A stretch of DNA of 19,442 nucleotides, taken from positions 1 through 19,442 of the IMG/VR virus record IMGVR_UViG_2609459832_000003, one strand, 5' to 3'. The translations under genes and the position numbers were made by a program. This DNA comes from a virus. Taxonomy: Duplodnaviria; Heunggongvirae; Uroviricota; Caudoviricetes. Numbering within the stretch: the first letter of the stretch is position 1; each line of letters starts with the position of its first letter. The notes beneath the pieces were generated by a model. The model worked only from the letters and a program-made list of their open reading frames with translations. It had not been told where the DNA came from and did not search any database. This document shows, one piece after another, positions 1 through 19,019 of this stretch.

Positions 1-582
1 CACTGTTCCACAGTACATATCACCCAGCATTAACGTGCCGGATGCACCCGATGAAAAAATATTGTTACCACCACCAATACTCACCTGAATTTTGTCAGTC
101 CGGTCATCTGATACATAAAACGATGTATTTCCAACTAATGAGCGGTTGCAGTACAGACTGGCTGAGACATAGCCGTTTTCGTTTCGCGTTGCGAAAATTT
201 CATAGTAATAACTGGCTGCTTCATCAGGATACGGGGTTGTAAATGAATAGCCATTAATCCTGATGTGGGATGGCGAAGATGAATATTTCTTTCCCGCACT
301 TAATGTCAGACGAAATCCCAGCTGTACAGCTGAGGCTTTTAAGTCCGGAAGTGTGCTGTACAGTGTGACATATGAGGGTGTCGTAAAAATCAGCCCCGTT
401 CTTTCTACAGTATTTACGGCCTGAGTGCCACGACAGACGGATGTTACAGAACCGGACATATCATTGATAAGCGTGACACCGTTTTCGTTCAGTGCTGAAA
501 TAATATTTGTTGAATAATAGTTCTCGCACAATCCCTCATTCGCCGGAATTTGTCGAAAACTTTCGAGTTTAATAATATTCAA
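1..582 (-). CDS. Partial CDS (N-terminal ~194 aa; gene continues past the window start): putative tail fiber / receptor-binding protein
   Basis: Minus-strand frame has no stop from 600 down to 1 (checked triplet by triplet). TTG start at 580-582 sits 6 nt after an AAGGAGAG Shine-Dalgarno and 24 nt after the stop of the upstream baseplate gene. Position right after the gp48-like gene is where Mu/P2-type clusters put the fiber. Missing from the ORF track because it has no ATG start and no stop in the window. G+C looks lower (~40-45% in sampled lines) than the rest of the tail operon. Confidence 0.45.
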   Translation of the reverse strand, partial: MNIIKLESFRQIPANEGLCENYYSTNIISALNENGVTLINDMSGSVTSVCRGTQAVNTVERTGLIFTTPSYVTLYSTLPDLKASAVQLGFRLTLSAGKKYSSSPSHIRINGYSFTTPYPDEAASYYYEIFATRNENGYVSASLYCNRSLVGNTSFYVSDDRTDKIQVSIGGGNNIFSSGASGTLMLGDMYCGTV

Positions 583-605
583 AGCGGCTCTCCTTTTATT
601 TTATG

Positions 606-1565
606 TCATTCGGACGTGACCACAGCAAAATGCAGTCCCGGGTGATTAATCAATAACGGTTCACGGGTTCTGCTGGCTGTCTGCAACTGCATACTGTTAA
701 CCGGTACGGGGGAGCGGGTCCTGTATCCCGTCTGCAACTGTGCGCTGTTCATGGTCATGGGGTCCGTTGTCGGCAGACCTGAGTGCAATTGCGCCCTGCT
801 GAGTACCAGTGGTTCTGCCATCGGACGGGCGGCATAAAAGTTAATCCGGTTAATTGTCAGCGGCTTACCTGTCAGTGCCGGAACAACCGCAAAATGAACA
901 CCTGTATGATTAATCGCTAATGGCTCAGTCGTCTTGTGTCCGGCCTGAAAGGAGAGGCTGTTTATAGTCAGGGCGGCTTGTTGCCCTTCACCAGACTCAT
1001 CCGGATATGCAAAAAGGACAACAGTATGCGACGGACATAATTTATTAATCACGCACTCCGCAACCGTATCACCCCACGTCCGGATCGGTGTGTTACAGGT
1101 GTCCGAACATGTCTGCCACTGAGCACCGGCATCCACCGGCAACGTCACACGCCAGAAATAACGCCAGCGATCACCCCATTCCGGATCGGGGCTTGCATCC
1201 AGGTGCTGGAACTGTTCGATCGTCACGCCGGTATATCCCAGCGCCTCAAGCTGCTCCAGGAAGAACTGCTCATTTATGCCACCAGCCACATTGGCTTTTG
1301 CTTCCAGCCGTTGCTGACGCTGGCGTAATGTCTGGGCTCCAACAGGAGAGCAGGTGTCAGGTAAACCATACAATTCTTCATAACGTTCAATCAGCTCTGT
1401 TGACTGACCAGGATCGATTTCAGCCATCAGTTCATCAGCCCGCTGATGAACACGTACAAGCGATGGTGCCAGACCATCAAGCACGCCGTCGGTATCGCTC
1501 CATGCAGGCCCCGGCGGCATCAGTCCGTACAGCAGCTTTGTATAATCATCCTGTAACGAATCCAT
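606..1565 (-). CDS. Baseplate protein, Mu gp48 / P2 gpI-like (DUF2313-type N-terminal domain) with a repeat-containing C-terminal extension
   Basis: N-terminus (MDSLQDDYTKLLYGLMPPGPAWS...ELYGLPDTCSP) matches the DUF2313/YmfQ-type proteins that follow baseplate J in Mu-like tails. Start overlaps the stop of the J-like gene (TAATG at 1563-1567). At 319 aa it is longer than typical ~190-aa homologues. Confidence 0.7.
   Translation of the reverse strand: MDSLQDDYTKLLYGLMPPGPAWSDTDGVLDGLAPSLVRVHQRADELMAEIDPGQSTELIERYEELYGLPDTCSPVGAQTLRQRQQRLEAKANVAGGINEQFFLEQLEALGYTGVTIEQFQHLDASPDPEWGDRWRYFWRVTLPVDAGAQWQTCSDTCNTPIRTWGDTVAECVINKLCPSHTVVLFAYPDESGEGQQAALTINSLSFQAGHKTTEPLAINHTGVHFAVVPALTGKPLTINRINFYAARPMAEPLVLSRAQLHSGLPTTDPMTMNSAQLQTGYRTRSPVPVNSMQLQTASRTREPLLINHPGLHFAVVTSE
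621..928. repeat. Imperfect direct repeats inside the 3' end of the gp48-like gene
   Basis: A ~45-bp imperfect direct repeat at ~621-664 and ~884-928 (shared core tgattaatc) encodes EPLLINHPGLHFAVV / EPLAINHTGVHFAVV. Three ~25-bp units at 681-704, 732-754 and 778-804 (ctgcaactg...) encode the xxAQLQTG-like motifs. Confidence 0.6.
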
Positions 1566-2647
1566 TATTTACTCCTTGCCGGGTCATAAGCCTGCCAGGT
1601 GATCTCGCCGAGCACCGGAAGCTCGGTCTCCCCCAGGTCAATATCCGATGAAGGGACGATTAACCGGTGGGCCACTTCACCAGCAGACAAACTGATGGCC
1701 TCACTGATTCTGGACAGATACATACGCCCCTCTGGCACACCATCCCGTAACATCAGTGCATTCAGCTCTGCTTTTATTGCAGTCCTGATCTGCGGTGTGT
1801 CTTTCGATAATGCAATCGTCATCGGGATGACTTTTTCTGTGGCACCGAATACATACAATCCGCTTCCGGCAACCGGTGTCAGAGGAAGAATGTGCTCTCT
1901 GACTGCATTAATGACGCTTTCATCCGGAGCCGGATGTTCCGGATCGTTTGTCGCCACCATCACCCCTACCGTTCCTATTCCTCTCCAGTGACGGTATGTC
2001 CATGCGCGCGTAATACCAGGCACTTCTTTAGCCCAGACGACATAATCCCCGTCAGCCCCGCCCTGAGGCGTCCAGTAATACCGCTCAATGACGCGGGCGC
2101 GCCACGTTTCCAGATCTTCAGTATCGAATCCGCCGGTCAGGGTATCAGCCACACCGGACGACGGCAGACCATTCACCGGCGTGACCAGGATTAATGCCGT
2201 ACCGTCGTCAGCATTACCGACCGCACCTGCAGTTGAGCAGGCGATCGGCACGCGCAGGACACCACCGGAGCTGGTTGCATCGGCAGTTGCTGTGTACTGA
2301 ACCAGGTCATCGCGCTGAATAACACTCCCGGCGGTCACCTTCAGGTCATCGCTGACATCTTCCCAGCGCATATACCCGCTGGCAGCCGTGGCCCCCTTGC
2401 GCGGACACCGTTTCATCGCAGCATGTCGCGCCAGCCAGGATTCATCACACCGGTCAGGCAGTATGTTCATTGCCAGATAATCGATGTAACCGTAAACCGT
2501 ATGCAGCGCCGCCGCATACACTTTTGCCCGCACGTCTTCATCCATGCGCCGGAGTGGGTCACTGACGTCCAGCCTGGCGAATAAATCGTTACGGAGCATA
2601 CTGATATTTTCTGCCAGCGTCGGGCGCTGAAACTCACTGTCCGCCAT
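1565..2647 (-). CDS. Baseplate J-like protein (Mu gp47 / P2 gpJ family)
   Basis: 360-aa ORF in the expected position between gp46-like and gp48-like genes, overlapping both neighbours. Size and synteny fit the baseplate J family. Confidence 0.8.
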   Translation of the reverse strand: MADSEFQRPTLAENISMLRNDLFARLDVSDPLRRMDEDVRAKVYAAALHTVYGYIDYLAMNILPDRCDESWLARHAAMKRCPRKGATAASGYMRWEDVSDDLKVTAGSVIQRDDLVQYTATADATSSGGVLRVPIACSTAGAVGNADDGTALILVTPVNGLPSSGVADTLTGGFDTEDLETWRARVIERYYWTPQGGADGDYVVWAKEVPGITRAWTYRHWRGIGTVGVMVATNDPEHPAPDESVINAVREHILPLTPVAGSGLYVFGATEKVIPMTIALSKDTPQIRTAIKAELNALMLRDGVPEGRMYLSRISEAISLSAGEVAHRLIVPSSDIDLGETELPVLGEITWQAYDPARSK

Positions 2648-3062
2648 GCGTTATCGCACTCCACAGATTATCAAAAGAAATCATTACCGGTCCGTCACGC
2701 CGCCAGAGAGTGATACTGTTACCCAGTTCATTAATCCCGGTGCGGCGGATATCCAGATCAATACGGGACACCACACCGTCATCAATCATCCATTGCAGGC
2801 ATTCGCGGATATACCCCCTTACCGTCTGCACCAGCTGATTTGTCAGTTTGCTGCGCTGAAGCAGCCACAGCCGGGAGCCGTAACGGTCATTCTGTACCGC
2901 AGGCCAGGTATCCCCCCACCATCCCATCGGGACGTCGGCGTTGTCATCAGGCTCCGCCCGCCGCCAGGTGAACAGGGAGATCACCACGGAGCGGGTCAGC
3001 GGATCCAGCGGTGCGCTGGCACTGGTGCGTTTGCCGTTCACCGTCAGCCACAGTTCCATCAT
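2634..3062 (-). CDS. Mu gp46-like baseplate protein (GP46 family, gp25/gpW-like wedge)
   Basis: 142-aa ORF between the spike (gp45-like) and baseplate J genes. ATGA overlap with the upstream gene at 3059-3062. Confidence 0.7.
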   Translation of the reverse strand: MMELWLTVNGKRTSASAPLDPLTRSVVISLFTWRRAEPDDNADVPMGWWGDTWPAVQNDRYGSRLWLLQRSKLTNQLVQTVRGYIRECLQWMIDDGVVSRIDLDIRRTGINELGNSITLWRRDGPVMISFDNLWSAITHGGQ

Positions 3063-3607
3063 GCCTCCATCGCTTTATCAGGTTTGTCGGTGTTACTGCC
3101 CTGACCGTTATCTCTGTGACGATGCCCGTTATAGGCAAGCCGCATCGCTGACATGGTGGTGCCGCCGGAGTCGCACAGGTCTTTCACCTGTCCTGTCACT
3201 TCCAGGTCCATTTCAAAACGTGCTTCAGGTGCATTGCGAAACGTGATCGTTTTACCTGCACCGTCCACCACGATCCCCTCCCGGGTCAGCGTCAAGGACT
3301 GCCCCTGATCGTCATAGACAGCCACCTCACCCGTCTTCAGCCCTTTCAGGCGGTAGCGCCGATCCGACACCGTAACAACCACCGCATGAGAACGGTCGCC
3401 ATCCGGAAACAACACCACCGCTTCCGCACCGCTGTTTGCGCTTGCGGTAAAACCGTAGGGTTCAAGATGTTCAACCCCGGCTTTGGGTTCACCGGCAATC
3501 AGGGACACATCCACGGTCTGACATTTCGTGGCGGCACTGATGCTTTTCACCACGGCCCGACCAATCAGGCCGAGGAGTTGTCGCTGCATGACTTCAATCG
3601 TCCTCAT
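3059..3607 (-). CDS. Baseplate assembly protein V-like / central spike (Mu gp45 homologue)
   Basis: 182-aa ORF, synteny gp44-gp45-gp46. Size fits the phage baseplate assembly protein V family. Confidence 0.7.
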   Translation of the reverse strand: MRTIEVMQRQLLGLIGRAVVKSISAATKCQTVDVSLIAGEPKAGVEHLEPYGFTASANSGAEAVVLFPDGDRSHAVVVTVSDRRYRLKGLKTGEVAVYDDQGQSLTLTREGIVVDGAGKTITFRNAPEARFEMDLEVTGQVKDLCDSGGTTMSAMRLAYNGHRHRDNGQGSNTDKPDKAMEA

Positions 3608-4686
3608 CAGAACGGGTCCTCCTGTACTCTGGCTTTTTTCTTTTTCCGCGCGCCGGGAGCCTCGGGTTCAGGCAGATAAGCATCAGGCGGGCCGACACGG
3701 ATTTCCGTCAGGGTGCCGTTCTGGTCCTGAGTAAACGTGACTTCCGAGACAAGCAGTTCGGTATTGTCGAAACCACAGACCGGATCAAAGACAATCACCC
3801 GCTGGTTGGGCTGCCACAGCGTACCGTTACCCTGTCGCCAGCCCTGCACCACATAGGTGGTTTCATCCGTCCGCGCCGCCCGTTGTCGGGCTTCAAAGTC
3901 AGCACGGGCAATACAACCTGCCCCCGTAGCCTGCCCTGTCTGCCTGATATACATCGGACGGTAACGGGCAATAAATGCGTCCTCTGTGCGGGCCCTCAGC
4001 GCGGTGGTGGTGGCCTCACCGAAATCATCGTCGTTTCCGGCACGCTGCCCCGCCACCTGGTAAACAGAAAACCGCTCCCGGACACTCTTCTCCGTATCGC
4101 AGGAAAGGATGTTTTCCCCGAGCACCAGCGCAGTATGCGCCCGCGTTGAGCCAATACCGCCAATCACCAGCCTGCCGTGCGGGTCGTCGTAAGCCAGTGC
4201 CTGCTGCTGACCGAGTATTTTGTTGATTACCTCAATCACCGTTTCACCATGATCGGGCTGGACGTCAGGAATAACACCCGACGGCGCACCGCTGTTCACC
4301 ACCTCAATGCCGAAGGGCGCAGCAAGCGCCTGCGCAATCTGTACCAGCGATCGTCCGTTAAACTGTGTCGGTTCGGCTGCACAGTCAATCAGGTCAGCAG
4401 TCAGACTACGTCCGGCAATACCGGTGCTGACCGAACGGGCATCGTAACGAACGGGGGTCGCCTCCACCCAGCCGGTGATCACCAGTTCATCACCAATCAG
4501 CACCTCCACTTTTGAACCGTTTTTAATGCGCGGCTGAAGCGTGGTGATACCCTCACCCCCCGGCCACTGGCGGGTGATCTCCACACTGAAATCCCGTGCC
4601 AGCCGTTCAATACCGGCACCGATGCGCACCGATGTCCAGCCATTCCACTCCCGGCCATTTACCCGTAGCGTGACATTGTCGTTCAT
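3607..4686 (-). CDS. Tail/baseplate hub protein (Mu gp44 'P' / P2 gpD-like)
   Basis: 359-aa ORF immediately after the DNA-circulation gene (ATGA overlap at 4683-4686), as in Mu gp43-gp44. Confidence 0.7.
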   Translation of the reverse strand: MNDNVTLRVNGREWNGWTSVRIGAGIERLARDFSVEITRQWPGGEGITTLQPRIKNGSKVEVLIGDELVITGWVEATPVRYDARSVSTGIAGRSLTADLIDCAAEPTQFNGRSLVQIAQALAAPFGIEVVNSGAPSGVIPDVQPDHGETVIEVINKILGQQQALAYDDPHGRLVIGGIGSTRAHTALVLGENILSCDTEKSVRERFSVYQVAGQRAGNDDDFGEATTTALRARTEDAFIARYRPMYIRQTGQATGAGCIARADFEARQRAARTDETTYVVQGWRQGNGTLWQPNQRVIVFDPVCGFDNTELLVSEVTFTQDQNGTLTEIRVGPPDAYLPEPEAPGARKKKKARVQEDPF

Positions 4687-6011
4687 TGCACTGGCACCTT
4701 CAGAGGGATCACCGGCACAAAGCCGGGATGCGTAATGGCATTACGCCGGATAATGTCCTCGTCACGCGCCGCGTTATCAAACCAGGTCGCCGCCAGCACC
4801 AGCGCGGGTAAAACCTCATCCGGTGTGCGCTGAATGATCCGTGCAGACTGTTCAAGGCGCGTGTTGATATCCGCATTCAGATCTGCTTTCACCCGGCGCA
4901 GCGCCAGAAACAGCGCATCACTGGTTGTACGGGACAACTCCTTATCAATTGCCGTATTCAGTGTGTCGCGAATGTCGGTCAGTTCTTCCCACGTCGGCAG
5001 GTCAACCGTGTTTTTCACCGCCGGTGCATTGTTCAGTGCCGGATGCGTGACGGAAGGCCAGCCAGTGCTCTGCGCAGGTGTTGTTGCCTGCCCCACTGTG
5101 GCATTCTGCATCACTGCGGAAGTTGTTGGCGCAGGCAATCGGGTGACGGCATACGCCGCTTCGCTGATTGCGGTCGTACGAAGGGTGCTGGCAACCACGT
5201 TACGCTGCTGCGTCGCCGTGGCGGTAGTTTTACTGTCCGTTTTCCAGATGCCGCGCGGTTGCAGATCGCTGCCGAGGCTGACACCGGAAAGCGTTTTGAT
5301 CATGGTGACAAGGTCGCTGGCGTTACCATAAAGGCGTTTCCCGGTACGCCACATTTTCTGCACCTGCTCAACGAAATTTTTGCCTGACGATGGTGGCGGC
5401 AGAAGTACCGAGATATCCCCCTGCAACAGCCTGGCAGCATCCGATACGGCAGAATCCACCACTTTCATCGCATCAGAAACATACCCAAGCATTGTGCTGG
5501 CATTACCTACGACGTCGTTCTGCACAAAATCTGCCACGCCATCGATACTGAAACCACTGAAGCTGTCACTGATGCAGTCATCCAGTGCAGAACAGGATGA
5601 CATCAGCGTCTGCGCCGTCGCCGCACCTGAAGTGGGGTAAGAGAGTTCTCCCGCTTCGACAAACTTCAGGTCAAAGCGGACAATACGCCCTTCGCTCTTC
5701 GATGTGCTGACCCGAACCTCCCCGTCAACACAGACTTTCAGCTCACCGTATGTCGGATGGACAAGCGTGCCGGGACCGGGTTTATTCAGCGCGTCAATCA
5801 GGCGATCGCGCTGGTCAAAGCAGTCATCTCCCACCACATAAGCCGTGATGGACGGGCGGAAAGTGATTTTCCCCAGGTCTTCGGTATAGGGTTTGTCACG
5901 GTTCGGGTATTCGTGCGTTTCCACACGACGACCGGTTCCCGCACTTTCTTCTTCAACCTTAAACGGCACGCCGCGAAATGACGCGTCCTGAAGTCTGTCT
6001 TTCCACGTCAT
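4683..6011 (-). CDS. DNA circulation protein (Mu gp43 'N' family)
   Basis: N-terminus MTWKDRLQDASFRGVPFKV...GRRVETHEYPNRDKPYTEDLG matches the conserved DNA-circulation N-terminal domain. 442 aa. GGAG Shine-Dalgarno 6 nt upstream of the ATG at 6011. Confidence 0.8.
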   Translation of the reverse strand: MTWKDRLQDASFRGVPFKVEEESAGTGRRVETHEYPNRDKPYTEDLGKITFRPSITAYVVGDDCFDQRDRLIDALNKPGPGTLVHPTYGELKVCVDGEVRVSTSKSEGRIVRFDLKFVEAGELSYPTSGAATAQTLMSSCSALDDCISDSFSGFSIDGVADFVQNDVVGNASTMLGYVSDAMKVVDSAVSDAARLLQGDISVLLPPPSSGKNFVEQVQKMWRTGKRLYGNASDLVTMIKTLSGVSLGSDLQPRGIWKTDSKTTATATQQRNVVASTLRTTAISEAAYAVTRLPAPTTSAVMQNATVGQATTPAQSTGWPSVTHPALNNAPAVKNTVDLPTWEELTDIRDTLNTAIDKELSRTTSDALFLALRRVKADLNADINTRLEQSARIIQRTPDEVLPALVLAATWFDNAARDEDIIRRNAITHPGFVPVIPLKVPVQ

Positions 6012-6026
6012 ATAAACTCCGGATAC

Positions 6027-6082
6027 AAAAAACCCGCCAAATCTGCTTTGTCAGTTATTTACAGCGCAGAAGATGTGGCGGG
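6027..6082 (-). terminator. Rho-independent terminator at the 3' end of the AT-rich moron
   Basis: On the minus strand, CCCGCCA (rc of 6076-6082) pairs with UGGCGGG (rc of 6033-6039), with further AUCU/AGAU pairing inside, followed directly by U6 (rc of the A-run 6027-6032). It lies 20 nt after the moron stop codon and just before the gp43 ribosome-binding site. Confidence 0.6.
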
Positions 6083-6101
6083 AATCTAATATTTTTAATT
6101 A

Positions 6102-6596
6102 CTATCTGAGTTGAACATCAATGGAATAAACATCACCACTCTTTATAAATTTAGAATCTGTCCTTTCATCAAAAGATTCAAATGACTGTACATTTAAAAA
6201 CTTTTTCATTTTATTTTCAAAAATACTTTCATTAACACCAGTTAAATATTTGAATGCTCTACCAGCAAGGACCTCATTACTTAAATCCATTGTGTTTTTA
6301 TTGTCTTTGAAAAACCAAACAATAACCTTTTGTGGGCATGATGGATTATAAACAGATATATAAAACTGCGGCTCATATTTTTCATCAGCATCATCACTGA
6401 GCATTTCTTCAGAAGATAATTCTCTTCTGAATTCATATTGCCGCTTAGTGATTCCTTCATCCTTTATTATCTCTTGCTTAACTGGTGCAATACCTATAGA
6501 AGAGATTAATTCTGACTCATTAAAGTTGAACTTACACTCTTCCGCAGCCAAGTTAAAAGATAAAAGTGCAGATATAAAAAAAACAAAGATACGCAT
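6102..6596 (-). CDS. Hypothetical secreted (signal-peptide) protein of unknown function, encoded by an AT-rich moron
   Basis: Complete ORF, stop at 6102. Longest ORF starts at 6614 (MIEGMIM...), but the ATG at 6596 has a GAAGGG Shine-Dalgarno 6 nt upstream and gives a textbook signal peptide: MR + IFVFFISALLSF + NLA/AEE. Very AT-rich codon usage unlike all neighbours. Two Cys in the mature part. No family recognised from memory. Confidence 0.7.
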   Translation of the reverse strand: MRIFVFFISALLSFNLAAEECKFNFNESELISSIGIAPVKQEIIKDEGITKRQYEFRRELSSEEMLSDDADEKYEPQFYISVYNPSCPQKVIVWFFKDNKNTMDLSNEVLAGRAFKYLTGVNESIFENKMKKFLNVQSFESFDERTDSKFIKSGDVYSIDVQLR

Positions 6597-6626
6597 AATC
6601 ATCCCTTCAATCATTTGTAAGGAATG

Positions 6627-6658
6627 ATTATATTAACTACTTAAAGCTGAAAAGCCAA
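6627..6658 (-). promoter_or_regulatory. Candidate sigma70-type promoter for the moron gene
   Basis: On the minus strand: TTGGCT (rc of 6653-6658), 17-nt spacer, TAATAT (rc of 6630-6635), overlapping a perfect TATAAT (rc of 6627-6632). Sits in the 81-bp AT-rich gap between the tape-measure stop and the moron ORF. Predicted start site would give a ~25-nt leader to the 6596 ATG. Confidence 0.35.
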
Positions 6659-6695
6659 ATCATGCCAGACAAAAACACATTAATCATTTTGTACA

Positions 6696-8528
6696 CTACC
6701 TGAACCGCGTATAGCCAACATCATGGCTGACATCAAAACCGCTGGATCGCGTTTCCATAACCCGCATACCCGGAGGCGAATTCACAAAAGAGACCTTGAT
6801 CTCACCATCAACTTTTGGCACAAAAGCTTTGTTAATCATGAAGGGATTCGGGCCTGTGGCATCGGAGGCGTTGTTTGACTGAGCCGGATCTACCGCCGGA
6901 TAAGGTGTGTATCCCCGCGCCGGTATTCCCGTCCCATAAGCATCATAAGCACCCGCGCCCCACTGCGCAGAGTTAATGGCATCGACCGTGTCACCGGAAC
7001 TGTCGGTAAACCACTCAATAATGGGCTTCAGCTTGTCCCACATATCCTGAAACCACTTAACAACCGGCCCCCAGTTATTGATCACCATTCCCAGCGGCGA
7101 CCAGGCAAAAACTTTCTTAAGGAGTTCCCAGCCAGCCTCAAAATAAGGACCAATGGTTTCCCAGAGCTTCTTAAAATAAGGTCCGACAACATCCCAGTTA
7201 GTGATAATTAATCCCGCAGCCAGAGCAATCGCCGTCGCAATCATGCCAATCGGCGTCATCGACATGATCCTGCTGACAATACTGATGGCACCGCCCACGC
7301 CCATCAATCCCAGTTTCAGAATCGCAAGACCGGCAGCAAGCCCGACGATGCCGCGAATAACCCGGGGATTTTCATCCGCAAACTTCGTGAATTTTTCCCC
7401 CAACTCCCCCAGCCATTGCGTGATATTTTTGGCGTCACCAGAAAATGCGCCGCCAATAGCCGCAAGGCCGTTAGTTGCGGTCCCTGTCATTGCCTCCCAC
7501 AGATTGGACAGCGTACCAAGCTGTGCCTGAACACGTTTATTCAGGCTGGCCTGTTTATTCATCTTCTGCTGGATCTGATCGTAACCATCCTTTCCTTTAT
7601 CGATCAGAGCATTGACCACCTGAAGGGTTTCGGCATCATCACCAAATATTGCCTTAAGTACACCTGTTCGCTTAACGTCGGTCAGTTTTCGCAGCTTTGC
7701 CAGTTGCTTAAACATGTTATCAAGACCGCCAAAACTCCCTTTGCCGTCAGTAAAATCGAGCTGCACTCCGAGTTTCTGGCGGGCCATGACTTTATTGACG
7801 TCCCTGATTTTCTTAACGCTTAATCCGGACTGGATAACTTTTCGCAGGGCGTTACCTGCCGACTCCCCGTTCATCCCCATCTGATCCATCATGACGCTGA
7901 TGGGGGCAAGGCTCTGTGCAGCCTGAAGACCGTCCTTGTTCACCATCTTCAGAACAGAGCTGGTTTTAGTGAAGAAGGACAACATGTTGGTATCGTCAAC
8001 GCCCAGATAAAACGCCTTCTGGATAGTGTCGAACAGCCCCATCATGTCTTCTGACGCCGTTCCGGTAGCATCCTGCATCTTTGCGGCAAACTCGGCAGCC
8101 GCTTCCGGTGTTTTTTTCAGTTGTACCGCAAGATAAGCTGTCGCTTTACCCACACCGCCAAGAATGTTTTCTGCCGGGATCCCCTGACGCACCAGCATCT
8201 GCATCATGTTCTGGAAATCAGCCGTTGTACCGGGTAGCTGGTTACCCAGGCCAATAGCCAGTTTATTGATGTCCTGAAAGCGCTTTCCAACCTCGCCGTT
8301 CGCATCCATCATGGCGACTTTCAGCCCGGTGGCGGCGTTTTCCTGATCGGCATAAGATTTCAGGGAAAGCGTCAAACCCGCTGCCAGTCCGCCACCAAGC
8401 GCCAGCCCACCCTGTGACGCTTCTTCCGCCTGGCGTTTAAATCCCCGGATTTTCTTTTGCATTTTCGACAGCGCGGGAGAAAGCCTGTCGACACCGGTGA
8501 TCAACGCCTTAAGCTCAAATTCAGCCAT
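6696..8528 (-). CDS. Tail tape measure protein
   Basis: 610-aa ORF after the chaperone/frameshift pair. Central hydrophobic stretch and periodic aromatic residues (NWDVVGPYFKKLWETIGPYFEAGWELLKKVFAW...WFQDMWDKL) are typical of tape-measure proteins. Gly/Ala-rich. Confidence 0.85.
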   Translation of the reverse strand: MAEFELKALITGVDRLSPALSKMQKKIRGFKRQAEEASQGGLALGGGLAAGLTLSLKSYADQENAATGLKVAMMDANGEVGKRFQDINKLAIGLGNQLPGTTADFQNMMQMLVRQGIPAENILGGVGKATAYLAVQLKKTPEAAAEFAAKMQDATGTASEDMMGLFDTIQKAFYLGVDDTNMLSFFTKTSSVLKMVNKDGLQAAQSLAPISVMMDQMGMNGESAGNALRKVIQSGLSVKKIRDVNKVMARQKLGVQLDFTDGKGSFGGLDNMFKQLAKLRKLTDVKRTGVLKAIFGDDAETLQVVNALIDKGKDGYDQIQQKMNKQASLNKRVQAQLGTLSNLWEAMTGTATNGLAAIGGAFSGDAKNITQWLGELGEKFTKFADENPRVIRGIVGLAAGLAILKLGLMGVGGAISIVSRIMSMTPIGMIATAIALAAGLIITNWDVVGPYFKKLWETIGPYFEAGWELLKKVFAWSPLGMVINNWGPVVKWFQDMWDKLKPIIEWFTDSSGDTVDAINSAQWGAGAYDAYGTGIPARGYTPYPAVDPAQSNNASDATGPNPFMINKAFVPKVDGEIKVSFVNSPPGMRVMETRSSGFDVSHDVGYTRFR

Positions 8529-8703
8529 GTGTGCGTTTCTCCTGCTCTATCCTGTTTGCCTGACTGACCAGCAAGGGAATTTCACTGATCGGCATATTCA
8601 GCAATTCGAAGGGATTAATGCGCCAGTAGCTGGCGCAGTCAAAGAAGCGATCAGTGAGGTATTCAGCCGTCAGGCCTGGAGGAAAAAACCAGCCACAAGC
8701 CAC
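8521..8703 (-). CDS. -1 frame C-terminal extension of the tail assembly chaperone (expressed as a fusion by programmed frameshift, not as a separate gene)
   Basis: ORF in the -1 frame relative to the chaperone, overlapping its last ~11 codons and ending 5 nt before the tape-measure ATG. Slippery heptamer at the overlap (see 8682-8688). Confidence 0.65.
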   Translation of the reverse strand: MACGWFFPPGLTAEYLTDRFFDCASYWRINPFELLNMPISEIPLLVSQANRIEQEKRTHG

Positions 8704-8939
8704 GCCGCTGCATTCAGGTCTGCCGGAGACATCTGGTCGACAGAGCTTTGCGGCACTTTCGCCAGCCGCACAATGTATTTCGACACCACATGCGCCAGAA
8801 GTCTGACGGACTCATCCTGATTCATCTGGTAGGGATACCCCAGCTCGCGGACATCCTTCCCGGTGGGCTCATCAAACTCCAGTACGGAGAGTGTCTCGCC
8901 ATGAGCAGTAATCGGTTTCTTTAACTCAAGCTCTTTCAT
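8670..8939 (-). CDS. Tail assembly chaperone (lambda G-like role; Mu gp41-like position)
   Basis: 89-aa ORF between tube and tape-measure genes. Start overlaps the tube stop (TAATG at 8937-8941). Ends 3 codons after a slippery site. Confidence 0.7.
   Translation of the reverse strand: MKELELKKPITAHGETLSVLEFDEPTGKDVRELGYPYQMNQDESVRLLAHVVSKYIVRLAKVPQSSVDQMSPADLNAAAWLVAGFFLQA
8682..8688 (-). promoter_or_regulatory. Programmed -1 ribosomal frameshift slippery heptamer T_TTT_TTC
   Basis: Minus-strand sequence GCU GGU UUU UUC CUC CAG GCC UGA. The zero-frame codons TTT TTC form an X_XXY_YYZ heptamer; a -1 slip reads TTT TTT CCT CCA GGC... into the 8521-8703 ORF. Confidence 0.65.
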
Positions 8940-9295
8940 TACTGGTAATCCCCTTCTTCACCGTGGAACTCAAGATCAACCGTGCCTTCTTCGGCATTAT
9001 GGTTCGCTTCGCCGTGCAGCCAGGCAGACGACAGTACATAGACCTGACCGTTCGCCAGCTCGGCAGTGATGGTCATCTCATCAGACGAGGTGATTTTGCC
9101 CACCGGAAAATTCTTCGGCACCTTGAAGGTCCCTTTGACATAAGGCGCACGGTGAGTTTCCTTGCGGTCCACTGAACCGTCCAGGCCGATGATGTCATCA
9201 TTGACCGTCCTGTTCATGGGCACCTCAATGCCGCCGGTCAGCGATAGCTGCTGACCGTCAATTTTGAAATAACAGGTTCCCCCGATACGGGCCAT
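8939..9295 (-). CDS. Tail tube protein (contractile tail; Mu gp40 'M'-like)
   Basis: 118-aa ORF immediately after the sheath gene (TAATG overlap at 9293-9297). Size and synteny. Confidence 0.75.
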   Translation of the reverse strand: MARIGGTCYFKIDGQQLSLTGGIEVPMNRTVNDDIIGLDGSVDRKETHRAPYVKGTFKVPKNFPVGKITSSDEMTITAELANGQVYVLSSAWLHGEANHNAEEGTVDLEFHGEEGDYQ

Positions 9296-10791
9296 TATGC
9301 AGACTCCTCTGAATACTGAAGACGGAACTGGTTAACCACGGCAAAGACACGCAACTGGTTAACATAGTCAGGCGGGAACAGCGTGTTCAGGCGATTTGGA
9401 TCGCTGGCATCACGCTCCACAACCAGGTACTGCTTGAACAGTTCGTAGTTTTCCACGATCCCCGCACGCTCGAGCTGACGGTAGGTTGCCAGCAGTTCCC
9501 CTTTGATCACCGCCGGGGTGACAATCGCCTGACCGGGACCAAAGCGGGTACCGTCACTGGCAAGCTTGTGACGCCCGTACTTACTGGTAATGACGGATTT
9601 CAGTTTGCGCAGTACATACGCACTGGTATGCAGCGTCTCGCTGTCGAGGTAGCTGTTATCCGCAACCCCGTAAGCGTTTTTCCTGTACGTGGTGACATCA
9701 CGCTGAATGCGCAGCACCCCGCTTTCGACATACGCCGTTGCCACGCCATGAGACAGCAGGGTCTGCTGCTCGGTCATCGTGAACCGTTTCCCCTTCGGCG
9801 CAGGCAGCATACCCACCAGCTCACCGGTCTGCGTGGGACGTGCCGGATCGTTGCGGATAAACACTGCCGCGCGGGCGGTACGGCTGGCTGCCAGCTCGTC
9901 GGCAGGCGTCTGGGGGTCTTTTTCGTACCCCGCCAGGGTAATGTGCTGCTGGTTAAACTGGTCACCTGCGGTCACCAGTTCTGACAGCGTGCCGGTCTTT
10001 GCCGTATACACATGACCATACAGCTGACGCGCATAGCTCCAGCGACCGCTGGTATCGTTCATCTCGGTCACCAGCGTGTTAACGGAGGCCGTGTCGCTGA
10101 ACGGCAGGCCGATATAATCAAACGGCTCATCCGCCATTGCAGCCACCGCGCCGGTGAGAACAGGAGCGCCCGTTCCGGCGGTACCCGTCGCCACGGCAAT
10201 CTGTACGCCCGCTGGCAGCACTTCGCCCCCACCAAAGCCGTAGTAATTGAGGCTGACAGGAATTTCATTCCCGCAAAGCCCCTTATGACGCGCGGTCAGT
10301 GTGACCACGCCTGCCGAAGATGAAGCCGTAAACGGCAGGGTCGGAACGGCATTGATGGCATCCTGGATACTGCTGGCAATCATCGTGACGTTATCGCCGT
10401 TAGTCACCGGTGCCTGCACGCGGGTACGTCCCACATACACATTCACCGTGCCGGTTTCGGTTGCCGCCCCGGTCACCGTCAGCGTAACCGTTGCCGCCGC
10501 GCCTGTGGATTCAGGAACGGCAATCACATACAGCTCGCCAAACGGGTCAGTCTGGCGATAAGCCTCGACCATACGCGCCAGCTGACTTCCCGCACCACAA
10601 ATCTGGCGTGCATAGTCTGCCGACGGCATCAGTACCAGACTGTTGGCAACAATCTCTGCACCGTTATTGGCATGACCAATCAGCAGCGATGCTCCGCTGT
10701 CCTGTGCAGTATTCGCCGCCTGGTTATCCATTTCCGCATAAAACAACGGAACCAGCGTATTCGACGGAATGGTGTTAAAGCTTATCGTCAT
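9295..10791 (-). CDS. Tail sheath protein (contractile tail; Mu gp39 'L'-like)
   Basis: 498-aa ORF followed by tube, chaperone and tape measure. Size and synteny characteristic of myovirus sheath proteins. Confidence 0.85.
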   Translation of the reverse strand: MTISFNTIPSNTLVPLFYAEMDNQAANTAQDSGASLLIGHANNGAEIVANSLVLMPSADYARQICGAGSQLARMVEAYRQTDPFGELYVIAVPESTGAAATVTLTVTGAATETGTVNVYVGRTRVQAPVTNGDNVTMIASSIQDAINAVPTLPFTASSSAGVVTLTARHKGLCGNEIPVSLNYYGFGGGEVLPAGVQIAVATGTAGTGAPVLTGAVAAMADEPFDYIGLPFSDTASVNTLVTEMNDTSGRWSYARQLYGHVYTAKTGTLSELVTAGDQFNQQHITLAGYEKDPQTPADELAASRTARAAVFIRNDPARPTQTGELVGMLPAPKGKRFTMTEQQTLLSHGVATAYVESGVLRIQRDVTTYRKNAYGVADNSYLDSETLHTSAYVLRKLKSVITSKYGRHKLASDGTRFGPGQAIVTPAVIKGELLATYRQLERAGIVENYELFKQYLVVERDASDPNRLNTLFPPDYVNQLRVFAVVNQFRLQYSEESA

Positions 10792-10945
10792 CGGTATTCA
10801 CCTTTTTATTCACGCGCCGGATATCACCCGCTGCTTCACGGCGCAGCCAGTAGTTGTTCTCGTCAACATTTCGCCCTTCGGCGGGCAAAAGGTCGCCGCG
10901 GGCAGGGTCAGGCACTGACCGCCCTTTAACAGGTTTGACAAACAT
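10775..10945 (-). CDS. Small conserved pre-sheath protein (56 aa; recalled as DUF2635-like)
   Basis: Not in the ORF track (below 60 aa). ATG at 10943-10945 with GAGGA 5 nt upstream; stop TAA at 10775-10777 overlaps the sheath start. Translation MFVKPVKGRSVPDPARGDLLPAEGRNVDENNYWLRREAAGDIRRVNKKVNTDDDKL resembles, from memory, small proteins found upstream of sheath genes in Mu-like tail clusters. Confidence 0.5.
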   Translation of the reverse strand: MFVKPVKGRSVPDPARGDLLPAEGRNVDENNYWLRREAAGDIRRVNKKVNTDDDKL

Positions 10946-10953
10946 GAGGATCC

Positions 10954-11514
10954 TCAGGAAGGAAGGGTTATTACGGTGTGATGTTCGATATCGCCGTCAG
11001 GCCCGTTACCGGGCTCGAGATAATCAACATCAATCGCCAGCGTTTGCAGTTCATCCAGACTGTTCAGATCATCCTGCTGGCGGGTATCGTCTTCAGTCAG
11101 CTCGCTGATGACCGAAAAATCGAACTGATAAATCAGCTCATGACGATTCAGATCCAGCAGCGTGCCGCCGTCATAGGTAATCGGGTTACCGCACGCTTCC
11201 GGGTTCCAGCCCAGCAGGGCCTTAAAGAGCATCTGCCGGACATCGTCCACCACATCATACGAGGCAAACTGACCGCGCTCATCACGCCCGTTACTCAGTA
11301 TGACAACCACGGAGAAGGCCTCTTTCAGCTCCTGCCAGTAGTCGGTCTGGCTTTTGTTTTCTCCCGGAGAGTCATCCCCCGGTACCACATACGCCGCCGG
11401 GAGTCTCAGCTTTCCGACCTCCGGCAGATTTTTGAACTGTGCCGCGCCTGCCACCCGGTTTTCAAAACACGGGCAGCGAGCACGCAGCGCAGCAATAACA
11501 GGCGTCAGTTTCAT
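10954..11514 (-). CDS. Virion/tail-completion protein (Mu gp37 / DUF1834-like)
   Basis: 186-aa acidic ORF between the head-tail joining genes and the pre-sheath/sheath genes. ATGA overlap with the upstream gene. Assignment rests mainly on synteny. Confidence 0.5.
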   Translation of the reverse strand: MKLTPVIAALRARCPCFENRVAGAAQFKNLPEVGKLRLPAAYVVPGDDSPGENKSQTDYWQELKEAFSVVVILSNGRDERGQFASYDVVDDVRQMLFKALLGWNPEACGNPITYDGGTLLDLNRHELIYQFDFSVISELTEDDTRQQDDLNSLDELQTLAIDVDYLEPGNGPDGDIEHHTVITLPS

Positions 11515-12017
11515 CTGCGTCGTCGCTCCGGCTTCAGTGATTTACGTAATTCCCGCGCCAGAAAATAGCGTGTCCAGCTGCGGTTCTTTTCAAGCGTTTC
11601 CACCATAAAGTTATTACGTGGAGCCAGCCGCCAGCCGCTGCCACCGGATGCACCACGATGATGACTACGACGACGTTTTGCTCCTCCCCGGACACCAAAA
11701 AACAGAAACGCCGGATAGAAGTCACCAGAGATCATCCGGTTCCCCTTCCCGTTGCGCTGGTTAGGGGCAATGCGTGTCATAAAACCGGCTCGCTTTTTAC
11801 TGGCTCTCGGCACCATATAACCAATCGAACGAGCCAGGCGTCCGGTCTGATAACCGGGGTTTTCACCCGGTGCCGACCGCGCACGGCGCATCACCAGCCG
11901 TCGGGCATCACGCATATGACGCTGACCAATCGTGACAAACGCCCGCCGGACACGGGCGCGGTTAAAGCGCATCTCCGCGGGCTGCTGAACATCAACGTGC
12001 AAAAAGGAAGTCGCCAT
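11511..12017 (-). CDS. HK97 gp10-family head-tail joining / virion morphogenesis protein
   Basis: 168-aa very basic ORF following the head-closure gene. Position and size fit the HK97 gp10 family. Confidence 0.55.
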   Translation of the reverse strand: MATSFLHVDVQQPAEMRFNRARVRRAFVTIGQRHMRDARRLVMRRARSAPGENPGYQTGRLARSIGYMVPRASKKRAGFMTRIAPNQRNGKGNRMISGDFYPAFLFFGVRGGAKRRRSHHRGASGGSGWRLAPRNNFMVETLEKNRSWTRYFLARELRKSLKPERRRR

Positions 12018-12402
12018 TGTTGCCTCCGTGACTCTGCGTAAATTCGCCCAGCTCCGTACACTCCAGCAGCAGAAAGCGCCGCGCCCCGTTCAGATCACGC
12101 TGACGTTTCACCCGGTACACACTGTCATCACAGACCACCTCATAATCAGCAGTGATCCCCCGGCGGTAACGAATGGTGATGTAATGGGTGATGGCGTCCC
12201 CGGTCTGCGCGGTTTCCTGCCAGGTGGTGGCACTGGTCTGGATAACCTTCGCCCATGTCCGGAACGTAACCGGGTATTGAGGCTCCACGCCAAAGTTATC
12301 CGCGGGCATATCCACCCGCTGGCGGAGCAGGACGCGTTTATTCAGTTCGCCGGGGTCCGGCAGCATGTAGGTTGCGCTGGTCTGCGCCTGACGAATTTTC
12401 AT
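11992..12402 (-). CDS. Head closure / head-tail adaptor protein
   Basis: 136-aa ORF directly after the gp6-like connector gene (ATGA overlap at 12399-12402). Synteny of the HK97-type head-tail joining set. Confidence 0.55.
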   Translation of the reverse strand: MKIRQAQTSATYMLPDPGELNKRVLLRQRVDMPADNFGVEPQYPVTFRTWAKVIQTSATTWQETAQTGDAITHYITIRYRRGITADYEVVCDDSVYRVKRQRDLNGARRFLLLECTELGEFTQSHGGNNGDFLFAR

Positions 12403-12722
12403 TGCGGAAAGTACCTGTACGGGCCGACAAGCCAGCCAAAACTCTGCGGCATGTCGAGTTTCTCCACTTCCGTAACCGACGAGCGGTTTTCGTAAAAATG
12501 GCTGATAAGCATCAGCATCCCCAGACGAATATCATCCGGCAGGTGCAGCCCGTCCGGATCGCTGTCCGGAATGGATTCATCCGGTGCATAGAGCTTCCGG
12601 TTCAGATACGTTTCCGTCCGCTTTTGCGCCGCACAGGCCAGCAGTTGCAGATGGCGGTCATCAGCATCGAAATCCTCATCCAGCCGGAGTTGGGCTTTAA
12701 TCTCTTCCATTGTCAGAAGCAT
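12399..12722 (-). CDS. Head-tail connector protein (gp6-like)
   Basis: 107-aa ORF (MLLTMEEIKAQLRLDEDFDADD...) downstream of the capsid gene. Size and position typical of gp6-like connector proteins. Confidence 0.6.
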   Translation of the reverse strand: MLLTMEEIKAQLRLDEDFDADDRHLQLLACAAQKRTETYLNRKLYAPDESIPDSDPDGLHLPDDIRLGMLMLISHFYENRSSVTEVEKLDMPQSFGWLVGPYRYFPQ

Positions 12723-12724
12723 AC

Positions 12725-12925
12725 TCAGCTCTCTTTACTGGTCGTGGCTTTTTTCTCTTTTGCCGCTTTACTGCTTTTTGCACTGGTTCCGCGCTCAGCT
12801 AACCCGGCCTGAAGTGCAATCTCCTGCACCCGGGCAGGAAGCGCCCCGTCGTCATACTCACCGGCCCGAATGACCTCAACACGCATACCGTCCGGTGACC
12901 ATTTCAGATCTTGTTTCAGGATCAT
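12725..12925 (-). CDS. Small hypothetical protein with a Lys/Ser-rich C-terminal tail
   Basis: 66-aa ORF between the major capsid and connector genes. Stop overlaps the next start (TGAGTATG). No family recognised. Confidence 0.4.
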   Translation of the reverse strand: MILKQDLKWSPDGMRVEVIRAGEYDDGALPARVQEIALQAGLAERGTSAKSSKAAKEKKATTSKES

Positions 12926-12947
12926 GATTCTTCACCCGTCAGAACAG

Positions 12948-12967
12948 GGGGCGCGGTTCCGCGCCCC
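12948..12967 (-). other. GC-rich hairpin just downstream of the major capsid gene
   Basis: GGGGCGC (12948-12954) / GCGCCCC (12961-12967) inverted repeat with a 6-nt loop, 8 nt after the capsid stop codon. No U-run follows. Confidence 0.5.
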
Positions 12968-12974
12968 TGAATGA

Positions 12975-14180
12975 TTACGCCGCTGCAATCTTCAGCAGTT
13001 TGATGGCCTGCGAATCGACCAGCATCCCGCCGGTGCGCTTGGTGGTATAAAAACCGACAAACGGTTTATTGGTGTACGGGTCACGCAGAATGCGGGTGCC
13101 GATACGGTCAACGATGGTGTAACCCCGTTTGAAGTTACCAAATGCAATGGCTTTCGCATCAGCGGCGATATCCGGCATCTGTTCGTTTTCAGCGATACCG
13201 TAACCCGCCAGAGAGGACGGCTGCCCCAGCTCCAGCCCCGGACGCCACAGATAGTTACCCTCGCTGTCTTTCAGCAGACGGATGGCAAACAGGCTGTTGT
13301 TGTTCATCATGAACTTCGCGCCAGTGCGGTGTGCCTTACGCAGCGTGTAAATCAGTTTGATAATGGCGTCTGCGGTCACCGCAGTCGCTTCGCCGGATAC
13401 AATATGCTGAAGTTTGCCGAACGCCCGGACCTTGTCGGTTTCATCAGTGGATTCATACGCCAGGAACCCTTTCGGCTTCTTGGTGCCATCGCCTGAGGTA
13501 AAGGCAATTTCTTCCTGTTCGGCAAATTCGGTTGCCAGCTCGCTGTTGATCCAGGCCTCCACGTTGAAAAAGGCATCATCCAGCATTTTCTGGGTGGCCT
13601 GCGGGTTGCCGTAAATTTCCCCCATGAGAGGTTCAATCAGCTCCAGTCTGGAGGTGGCAGTCTGGGATCGCGTATCCGTTTCCCCCACCCATCCGGAAGC
13701 CGTACCGCCCAGATTCACCAGTTTTTTGTAGTCGGAACCGCCAACGGTGATCACCGTGGCTTCCTGACGCATCACCACTTCATCTTTCAGCAGGTTAAGA
13801 ATGTTGCGATCCAGTTCTTCCGGCACGGCGTAGCCACCGTCTTCATCGGTACCCACCTGCAATGCCTTACGCTCCAGATCGCGCAGACCGTCTTCACGGC
13901 CTTTACGCAGGAAGCCCACAAACGCCTCTTTATGCTCGGTGGCCAGTTTATTTTGCGCTCCACCAGCCGGACGTTTCAGCTCAAGCAGCTCTTTTTCAAG
14001 GTCGCTTTTGAGATTTTCCAGCTCGCTGAGTTTCCCGTTCAGGGTTTCCACCTGCCCGGCAAGCTTGCCTTTTTCCTGCTCAATCGCATCCACGCGCTTG
14101 TCGTTCTTTGCTTTGAAGTCGTCAAACTTCTGCTGCAGCTCCTGCGCGACCTGTTCGACATCTTTAATATCAACCGCCAT
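12975..14180 (-). CDS. Major capsid protein, HK97 family, with N-terminal coiled-coil delta (scaffold) domain
   Basis: 401-aa ORF. The first ~100 aa are highly charged and coiled-coil-like (QELQQKFDDFKAKNDKRVDAIEQEKGKL...LEKELLELK), followed by a capsid fold region. Sits directly after the prohead protease. Confidence 0.9.
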   Translation of the reverse strand: MAVDIKDVEQVAQELQQKFDDFKAKNDKRVDAIEQEKGKLAGQVETLNGKLSELENLKSDLEKELLELKRPAGGAQNKLATEHKEAFVGFLRKGREDGLRDLERKALQVGTDEDGGYAVPEELDRNILNLLKDEVVMRQEATVITVGGSDYKKLVNLGGTASGWVGETDTRSQTATSRLELIEPLMGEIYGNPQATQKMLDDAFFNVEAWINSELATEFAEQEEIAFTSGDGTKKPKGFLAYESTDETDKVRAFGKLQHIVSGEATAVTADAIIKLIYTLRKAHRTGAKFMMNNNSLFAIRLLKDSEGNYLWRPGLELGQPSSLAGYGIAENEQMPDIAADAKAIAFGNFKRGYTIVDRIGTRILRDPYTNKPFVGFYTTKRTGGMLVDSQAIKLLKIAAA

Positions 14181-14194
14181 CGTATTTCTCCTGA

Positions 14195-14845
14195 TTAGAA
14201 GTTCAGATTTTTCAGTGCATTCAGTGCAGAACCCACATCCTCAGCGTCGCGCAGGGACAGTGCGCCATAGCCCCCGGCCATGAATGCTTTGGCCTGGGTA
14301 CGGGAGAGTCCGACATCACGCAGGACTCTTTCGATTTTTTTCTGTTCGGGGATTTCCCCGCGGGCCAGTGCGTTCTTGACGTCGCTGATCCGCGCCTCGT
14401 CGTTAGACGGGAACGTCACCAGGCTGACTTCCCAGAGGTCGATTTCTTTCAGCAGAAAGGCTTCTTTGCTCCGGTCGTATTCCCAGTCTTTCAGGACGTA
14501 CCCAATAGAAAGGCCGGTTAACGAACCGGCCTTCATGTGTGCATGTGCGCGTTTTGCGAGGGGATCATCATCAATAAGCAACCGTCCCCTGACGTAAAGC
14601 CCGACATCGTCTTCCTTCATTTCGGTGTAAACACCGATGGGTTCATCCATGCGGTGCTGCCAGAGCAGCGCAGGTAACGCTTTTCTGTCACTCCACGCCC
14701 GCAGGGAAGCAGCAAATGCCCCGGACATCACCACATCATCGTGGCTGTCCTTTACACCAAAGACGGAGCCATACCCTTCAAACTCACCGGAGTCACTGAC
14801 AGATTTCAGACTCAGCGGTACATCAAGACGTTGTTTCGTCTGCAT
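14195..14845 (-). CDS. Prohead maturation protease (HK97 family)
   Basis: The ORF extends to 14881, but the ATG at 14843-14845 has an AAGGA Shine-Dalgarno 8 nt upstream and avoids a 59-nt overlap with the portal gene. Sequence ...SGEFEGYGSVFGVKDSHDDVV... is typical of HK97-type proteases. Confidence 0.85.
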   Translation of the reverse strand: MQTKQRLDVPLSLKSVSDSGEFEGYGSVFGVKDSHDDVVMSGAFAASLRAWSDRKALPALLWQHRMDEPIGVYTEMKEDDVGLYVRGRLLIDDDPLAKRAHAHMKAGSLTGLSIGYVLKDWEYDRSKEAFLLKEIDLWEVSLVTFPSNDEARISDVKNALARGEIPEQKKIERVLRDVGLSRTQAKAFMAGGYGALSLRDAEDVGSALNALKNLNF

Positions 14846-16064: not shown

Positions 16065-16246
16065 TATTTACCTCCACCAACAGACAGCTGTGTACGATCG
16101 AGATATCGCGCTACCAGCCACGACCAGAACAGGCACAACGCCCCGGCAACAACAAACCCCGCCGGGGGATAAATCAGCCAGGCACCATACGCCAGCAAAA
16201 GCGCCCCCAGCACGCCCACCAGAGGCGCGAGAATCAGCATGATCAT
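16064..16246 (-). CDS. Small predicted membrane protein (two hydrophobic segments), function unknown
   Basis: 60-aa [52 protein letters not shown]... GAGGT Shine-Dalgarno 5 nt upstream of the ATG at 16246. Stop overlaps the portal start, so it is translationally coupled. Confidence 0.5.
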
Positions 16247-16257
16247 AATTACCTCAG

Positions 16258-18482: not shown

Positions 18483-18532
18483 ATGCGGCACTCCTGGTTA
18501 AATTTCATTTTTCGCGGGTATAAAAAAACGAT

Positions 18533-18581
18533 GGGGCGGGCAGTCCGGAAGACGTCAGGTCACAGGGATTTGACCCGCCCC
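18533..18581 (-). other. GC-rich inverted repeat with downstream U-run in the HNH-terS intergenic region (terminator-like; possible cos/terminase recognition region)
   Basis: GGGGCGGG (18533-18540) and CCCGCCCC (18574-18581) form a perfect 8-bp inverted repeat with a 33-nt spacer containing the palindromes TCCGGA and GACGTC. On the coding strand the stem is followed by AUCG and U7 (rc of 18523-18529). Confidence 0.4.
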
Positions 18582-18607
18582 TCCCCTCTGTCAGTGGGAA
18601 CTGATTC

Positions 18608-18958: not shown

Positions 18959-19019
18959 TGGAATCTCCTTAATACCGGCATTATCGCAGCCCCTCACTGA
19001 AGGGCTGCTGTAATGCCTG

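Follow-up and report, generated by a model that had tools for sequence, protein, structure and literature searches.

A PHROG 8291 gene beside a repeat-extended YmfQ gene of an E. coli prophage: a candidate accessory tail-tip adhesin

Introduction

In an E. coli prophage, what is encoded by the open reading frame that comes directly after the final baseplate gene and runs off the end of the available sequence? The stretch of DNA analyzed here (19,442 nt, hereafter the window) is the late region of the prophage. It contains genes for terminase, portal, HK97-type protease and capsid, genes for the contractile sheath, tube and tape measure of the tail, and a Mu-like baseplate set coding for the DNA-circularisation protein, gp44/P, gp45, gp46, J/gp47 and Gp48/YmfQ. 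The product of the frame at the edge had been taken, in an original prediction made from the letters alone, for the receptor-binding tail fibre of the phage, acquired by horizontal exchange.

Other places in the tail module of the window were recorded in passing. A 170-aa ORF on the minus strand (6102–6614), flanked by the tape-measure gene and the DNA-circularisation gene, lies in a sharp island of low G+C (0.32–0.35, compared to ~0.55). It falls into phrog_8976 ('unknown function', E 4e-106), has no Pfam, NCBIfam or PADLOC match and has the look of a moron acquired by the tail module. At 8521–8939, also on the minus strand and just ahead of the tape measure, two ORFs in different frames overlap, one of 60 aa and the other the 89-aa tail assembly chaperone (PF10109); judged from the ORF list, this is the layout expected of an E/E'-type programmed frameshift.

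Results

The minus-strand frame at the edge contains no stop codon from position 600 down to position 1, and its first possible start, a TTG, leaves 194 codons inside the window (Table 1). An open frame of 200 codons appeared in none of 20,000 shuffles of the 600 edge bases. The predicted frame and start codon are borne out by RefSeq/PGAP annotation, which uses the same TTG in 99.9%-identical DNA, and the TTG is kept in most E. coli-type members of the protein family. A Shine-Dalgarno sequence is present as predicted, with a spacer one nucleotide shorter than the 6 nt claimed. The YmfQ gene (606–1565) has its stop codon at 608–606 and thus ends 23 nt away, so that the ORF does lie directly 3′ of the last baseplate gene. 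Its G+C content (0.426 for positions 1–582) is, as had been noted, below that of the structural genes (0.546 for 1566–19442); fibre and Tfa genes are also low, at 0.47. That the ORF is missing from the ORF list, another correct remark, is due solely to the omission from that list of ORFs that run off the window. Neither a signal peptide nor a transmembrane or hydrophobic segment was found in the protein. A consensus scan, which is a weak test, revealed no promoter- or terminator-like sites in the 23-nt gap upstream of the gene or in the 30-nt gap downstream of it in a relative (see below), promoter-like sites at these gaps being fewer than in shuffled sequences. We conclude that the edge ORF is a real TTG-initiated E. 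coli prophage gene.

Table 1. Features at the edge of the window and carriers of the repeat tail
Feature	Position	Strand	Basis
Edge ORF, codons 1–194 of 349, PHROG 8291 family	1..582	(-)	translation; full-length gene in L001
Start codon TTG	580..582	(-)	first start past the in-frame TAA at 603–601; PGAP picks the same
Shine-Dalgarno AAGGAGAG	588..595	(-)	5 nt (CCGCT) before the TTG; read from sequence
YmfQ C-terminal 124-aa extension, aa 196–319, seven tandem 16–20-aa repeats	609..980	(-)	translation
Gp48/YmfQ baseplate wedge core, aa 1–195	981..1565	(-)	PF10076, E 7e-25; phrog_203 'baseplate wedge subunit', E 1e-73
Baseplate J/gp47 gene	1565..2647	(-)	PF04865, E 1.5e-53; Mu-like contractile-tail context
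Carrier: PF10076 Gp48			at least 3 different cores
Carrier: PF08400 lambdoid Stf N-terminal domains			with or without PF03406
Carrier: PF12571 P2-type fibre N-terminal domain			
Carrier: Salmonella 919-aa tail-tip protein			

The rest of the gene was read from close relatives. DNA 99.9% identical to window positions 1–1600 was matched in 89 of 5,426 complete E. coli genomes; 35 of the matches cover most of it, and many are ETEC. In one of these relatives (NZ_CP068155, L001) the full gene occupies positions 10019–11068, has 349 codons and codes for WP_001297483.1, labelled 'hypothetical protein'. An early truncation just past the window edge is not seen in the relatives, the window's own continuation being unseen. 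A 30-nt gap separates the 349-codon gene of L001 from a gene for a 369-aa protein, which is followed by a 176-aa tail fibre assembly protein, a DUF4376 remnant, tRNA-Ser and hyaA, the last two marking the end of the prophage. In profile searches the product of 369 aa hit phrog_6859 'tail fiber protein' (E 4.5e-170) along with about twenty further PHROGs for fibres, and the product of 176 aa is a Caudo_TAP (Tfa) chaperone. The N-terminal 180 residues of this fibre are ~95% identical to those of the fibre of a sister prophage, L002, and the two diverge beyond. In L002, located at the same tRNA-Ser site, YmfQ is complete at 196 aa and the fibre gene comes straight after it. Residues 1–195 of the window YmfQ are 92% identical to L002 YmfQ, and 124 extra residues follow. 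Since L002 has neither the YmfQ extension nor the 349-aa gene, the two together constitute an insert that separates the ordinary fibre from the wedge protein. The RefSeq label of the fibre (L001 11099–12208) is 'hypothetical protein' despite the strong fibre PHROG matches; no Pfam domain scores above threshold in it.

Judged by these matches, the canonical tail fibre is the product of the gene next after the edge ORF, beyond the window. It is therefore extremely improbable that the edge ORF is the receptor-binding fibre itself. The strong ribosome binding site, the place right after the last baseplate gene, the lower G+C and the horizontal exchange described below all agree with that assignment; against them stand the bona fide fibre that comes next, with a conserved baseplate-attachment N-terminus and a Tfa of its own, the insertion of the ORF between wedge and fibre genes, the lack of any match of the ORF to fibre families, and a predicted compact globular fold without a shaft. 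The original prediction was right that the N-terminus of the protein is unlike those of known fibres. The fibre-assembly chaperone gene that it proposed to look for downstream does not follow directly: the fibre gene comes first in L001 and Tfa only after it. The invertible segment that it also proposed to look for is not there: L001 has no invertase gene before the prophage ends at tRNA-Ser, no inverted repeats resembling recombination sites were found in window positions 1–1700, and the idea was dropped. The only DNA repeats in 1–1700 are two copies coding for EPLxINHxGxHFAVV, 73% identical to each other.

Profile searches assigned the protein to a single PHROG, phrog_8291 ('unknown function'), which matches residues 1–349 of 349 with an E-value of 8.5e-247 (5e-135 for the 194-aa fragment). 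No match to a fibre family, PF12571, PF08400 and PF03406 included, was obtained in Pfam, PHROGs or NCBIfam, and neither the ORF nor the family profile matched anything in Pfam, NCBIfam, PADLOC (anti-phage defence) or the sequences of the PDB. A first homologue search with a single sequence returned only relatives of at least 97% identity. An exhaustive HMMER search of 1.84 billion representatives extended the family to 14 clusters with identity down to 27%, and a profile search to 63 clusters of 345–387 aa with E-values as low as 1e-146. The only hosts named are E. coli, Salmonella enterica and Raoultella; every cluster is called 'hypothetical' and none has a Pfam domain. On a narrower alignment, the family was found in 27 IMG/VR prophage-type contigs and in one GTDB species representative, E. 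albertii. The YmfQ extension and the 349-codon gene occur together in 66 of the 5,426 complete E. coli genomes. The family is known only from prophages, since tblastn of three divergent members against 50,697 records of sequenced phages gave no match. Conservation is fairly even along the length of the protein, and the hypervariable C-terminal tip that fibres typically have is absent. By these searches, PHROG 8291 is a small, uncharacterised family of Enterobacteriaceae only. The literature on YmfQ with tail fibre, on Casjensviridae and on AchV4 yielded no description of the family or of the repeat presented below.

Several of the prophages that carry the gene are visibly degraded. In L001 (4389–5957) and L041 (15058–15965), relatives that are 99.8–99.9% identical, the stretch from capsid to DNA-circularisation genes, with head completion, sheath, tube and tape measure, has been lost, so many carriers are defective prophages; the window itself is intact between these genes. 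L041 (6701–7919) and L042 (1–512) also contain, outside the range of the window, genes for an ADP-ribosyltransferase (scabin/enterotoxin A-like) and an AB5 toxin B subunit beside the lysis cassette.

Structure prediction with AF2 started from an alignment of 54 family sequences, the first of them 98% identical to the edge ORF. The resulting model (pLDDT 90.4, pTM 0.89) is all-beta and has two domains, approximately residues 1–195 and 205–349. The 349-aa protein is thus predicted to consist of two compact globular ConA-like (lectin/glucanase) beta-sandwich domains, the fragment inside the window corresponding to about the whole of the N-terminal one and the remaining codons lying beyond the edge. 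The modelled monomer is compact and does not have the elongated architecture of a shaft. Its jelly-roll beta-sandwich superimposes on members of the ConA-like lectin/glucanase fold; agreement with PDB entries in Foldseek is weak (E 5e-6, TM 0.2–0.38). The ConA-like fold is generic, and the modelled fold by itself does not prove sugar binding.

In another reading, the protein is not a passive lectin but a tail-borne polysaccharide depolymerase of lyase or glycosidase type, attached to the phage in the way proposed below. We regard this reading as improbable: carbohydrate-binding modules (CBMs) and lectins match the model equally well, and in sequence the protein matches no family of lyases or hydrolases.

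Foldseek against BFVD returned matches over the whole length (TM 0.62–0.68, E 1e-14 to 1e-12) to proteins of 320–370 aa, all from isolated siphophages, among them AchV4, JS26 (three paralogues), Kokobel1, JC01, Saba and Enc34. The proteins of AchV4, JS26, Kokobel1, JC01 and Enc34 share the two-domain architecture of the family over the whole length; identity of the siphophage proteins to the family is only 10–16%, and HMMER from the family does not reach them. The top match, 14% identical, is from Achromobacter phage AchV4 and is labelled 'Virion structural protein'. In AchV4 this label refers to tail-cluster proteins detected by LC-MS/MS (PMC7996906), the structural match not being tied to a specific AchV4 gene. 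Adsorption of AchV4 is sensitive to periodate (PMC7996906).

The C-terminal extension of the window YmfQ is built of repeats. Units 1–4 are AALTINSLSFQAGHKTT, EPLAINHTGVHFAVVPALTG, KPLTINRINFYAARPMA and EPLVLSRAQLHSGLPTT, and units 5–7 are DPMTMNSAQLQTGYRTRS, PVPVNSMQLQTASRTR and EPLLINHPGLHFAVVTSE. They are of the type EPLxINxxxLQxG, with unit 2 and the last unit, 7, finishing in GxHFAVV. AF2 modelling of the extended YmfQ alone (6-sequence alignment) gave a pLDDT of 33.7, low even for the Gp48 core, so the model says nothing about the repeats. The PGAP annotation of a homologous YmfQ is a pseudogene 'missing C-terminus' with only 585 nt covered. This call is doubtful, because the frame of 319 codons (606–1565) is intact and the extension is conserved in many loci; it is probably an artefact of the family model, to judge from the reading frame.

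Repeats of this kind were also found next to other members of the family. Across the anchors, that is, the tail proteins that carry them (Table 1), the consensus is (E)PLVINRxxLQSGxxT, in 3–7 tandem copies of 16–20 aa. The anchors are built on no fewer than three mutually unrelated N-terminal domains known for attachment to the tail. The repeat-tailed ORF ends 1–30 nt upstream of the family member in 30 of the 34 loci tabulated, with repeats such as QEPLVINRVMLQSGYTT in L010 and QEPLSINRLYLQSGAKT in L011. The exceptions are of several kinds. In L019 the anchor is of the Gp48 type, carries seven repeats and lies two genes upstream, with fibre and Tfa genes in the interval; L021 has the same upstream-ORF row as L019, and its anchor was placed by that row alone. 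In L006, from Salmonella, a divergent repeat, PVRxxYGxVI, ends a 919-aa tail-tip protein, and in L004 the upstream ORF has 64 aa and a degenerate motif. If L006 and L004 are counted with their divergent and degenerate repeats and L021 by its L019-like row, the family gene and a repeat-tailed, tail-anchored protein occur together in 36 of 36 loci examined. As the window arrangement recurs many times in nearly identical form, these loci represent ~13 independent arrangements. The association was also met from the opposite direction: anchors P0075 and P0080, found solely through their repeat tails, each precede a 50%-identical family member by ~30 nt, that of P0075 being in a heavily deleted prophage. 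The search with the repeat-tail profile gave only 7 proteins, and the census of repeat carriers is incomplete.

The number of repeats differs among close relatives (4 in L010, 5 in L031, 6 in L030 and L032). The same gene, 98% identical, accompanies repeat tails of rather different sequence, so recognition of the repeats would have to act at the level of the motif. In the annotation of L010 (3861–4978) the Gp48-type anchor is called as two overlapping genes of 138 and 257 aa; its counterpart in L030–L032 is one ORF of 379–396 aa with an Ig-like/CarboxypepD_reg-like insert between Gp48 core and repeats. In L011 (4979–5010) the called start of the family member (TTG, MRVIGQIP...) is without the conserved N-terminal MNIIxLEGF, and translation from an ATG that lies 22 nt upstream in a different frame gives MSKTNIQLEG, which suggests a 1-nt frameshift or a sequencing error at the 5′ end.

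These associations bear on two further explanations of the gene. The main rival to an accessory virion protein is a moron, a cargo gene that just happens to sit in the hypervariable fibre region, with a role in lysogenic conversion or inside the cell and a product absent from the virion. Low G+C (0.43), the confinement of the family to Enterobacteriaceae prophages and its absence from sequenced phage isolates, a position as the last gene before host DNA in several loci, and persistence in degraded prophages are all in keeping with a moron. We nevertheless consider it unlikely: the gene has a tight late-operon spacing and no promoter or terminator of its own that our weak test could find, its product carries no export signal and has no match in PADLOC, it constantly accompanies a repeat tail on a structural tail protein, in the reciprocal search as well, and the top structural match over its whole length bears the virion structural label on an LC-MS/MS basis (AchV4; PMC7996906). 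An assembly factor or chaperone for the repeat-tailed anchor, made but not retained in the virion, would be encoded right after the anchor, as fibre chaperones are. We hold this to be highly improbable, given that a 349-aa protein with two lectin-like domains is unlike Caudo_TAP (and does not match it), that fibre and Tfa genes separate the family gene from the anchor in L019, and that the closest structural match bears the virion label.

The borders of homology between the window and other loci fall at the limits of these elements. Homology to L024 and L013, which have Stf-N or P2-H-N anchors, begins at position 583, one base before the TTG, with 98% identity; homology to L019 begins at 597 and thus takes in the ribosome binding site. 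At the other end of the extension, 949 is the first homologous position in L036, whose Gp48 core is a different one, and homology to L002 stops at 996, the junction of core and extension. On these borders, the gene and the extension show cassette-like recombination breakpoints, at 996/949 and at 583–597. The horizontal exchange of the original prediction is upheld, since homology begins at the ribosome binding site or start codon while the genes upstream differ; the receptor-binding role that it gave to the exchanged module is one that we infer.

Discussion

We put at slightly better than even the chances that the 349-aa protein is an accessory virion adhesin of the tail tip. In the proposed arrangement it would form a separately encoded adhesin 'head'; the tandem-repeat extension of YmfQ would hold this head non-covalently on the baseplate, in which the Gp48 core would be the anchor, and the head would bind, or possibly cleave, polysaccharide of the cell surface. 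As the phage retains an ordinary fibre with its chaperone, the head would serve as a second host-recognition device. The proposal follows from the place of the gene in the late operon without signals of its own, from its co-occurrence with the repeat tail and from the virion-labelled structural analogue. From the same evidence we infer that the product is present in the virion, docks physically on the repeats and binds glycans, and that receptor binding, as an accessory adhesin, is its most likely role. The evidence on the family consists of prophage genomes and predictions, the structural virion match being at 14% identity.

More tentatively, and with odds somewhat against it, repeat stalk and ConA-like head may constitute a portable two-piece host-recognition module not described before, with a stalk that could be added to tail-attachment domains of unrelated origin, namely the Gp48 wedge protein, the N-termini of lambdoid Stf and of P2-type fibres, and a siphophage tip protein. 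Enterobacterial myo- and siphophages would then swap or add receptor specificities as one cassette. Gp48-type wedge proteins are present in one copy per wedge in contractile baseplates, and the N-terminal domains of Stf and P2-H belong to trimers, so a single docking geometry on both types of carrier is not obvious.

If true, the adhesin proposal would amount to a compact receptor-binding system that can be plugged into tails of different architecture. It would bear on host-range mosaicism in prophages of E. coli, many of them in ETEC, and of Salmonella, and might help in engineering the specificity of phages or tailocins. Annotation would be corrected for the 349-aa protein and the canonical fibre, both now 'hypothetical', and for the extended YmfQ, now flagged by PGAP as truncated although its extension is conserved and patterned. 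Should the inference not hold, the gene is just another ORFan of the hypervariable fibre region.

Several known systems invite comparison. The triple beta-spiral shafts of adenovirus fibre and reovirus sigma1 are made of tandem repeats of ~15–17 aa with a Pro/Gly-Leu-x-hydrophobic core that precede a beta-sandwich head. In the prophage system the head would be a separate polypeptide, and the resemblance is without sequence support: the repeat-tail profile found no adenovirus or reovirus chain among PDB sequences at E-values up to 10.

In phages of the T2/S16 type, the tip of the long tail fibre gp37 bears gp38, a globular adhesin with a gene of its own. As with gp38, the gene studied here stands right after that of its carrier, with a specific end of which it is co-inherited, and the product would attach non-covalently at the distal end. 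No relation to gp38 in sequence or fold was found, the fold predicted here being a ConA-like double beta-sandwich; the carrier is a tail of 16–20-aa tandem repeats rather than the tip of gp37, and binding to it is putative.

Accessory carbohydrate-binding baseplate proteins are found in siphophages, such as BppA of lactococcal phage Tuc2009, the BppU–BppL tripod of TP901-1 and the CBM insertions in Dit and Tal. With these proteins the proposed head would share a beta-sandwich of lectin or CBM type, held by an adaptor and added to a tip that has a primary receptor-binding protein. Here, however, the phages are temperate myo- and siphophages of Gram-negative hosts, there is no homology, and the adaptor, unlike BppU, would be a repeat extension on Gp48, Stf-N or P2-H-N.

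Branching systems of adaptor and tailspike, namely gp66–gp63.1 of G7C, the TSPs of CBA120 and the adaptor of SP6/K1-5, likewise combine modular, horizontally exchanged anchor docking regions with separate receptor-binding proteins, with breakpoints at the module borders. Their docking domains are T4 gp10-like or T7 gp17-like and their spikes are trimeric beta-helices, whereas in the prophages described here the candidate docking element is a short array of repeats and its partner would be a compact lectin-like protein.
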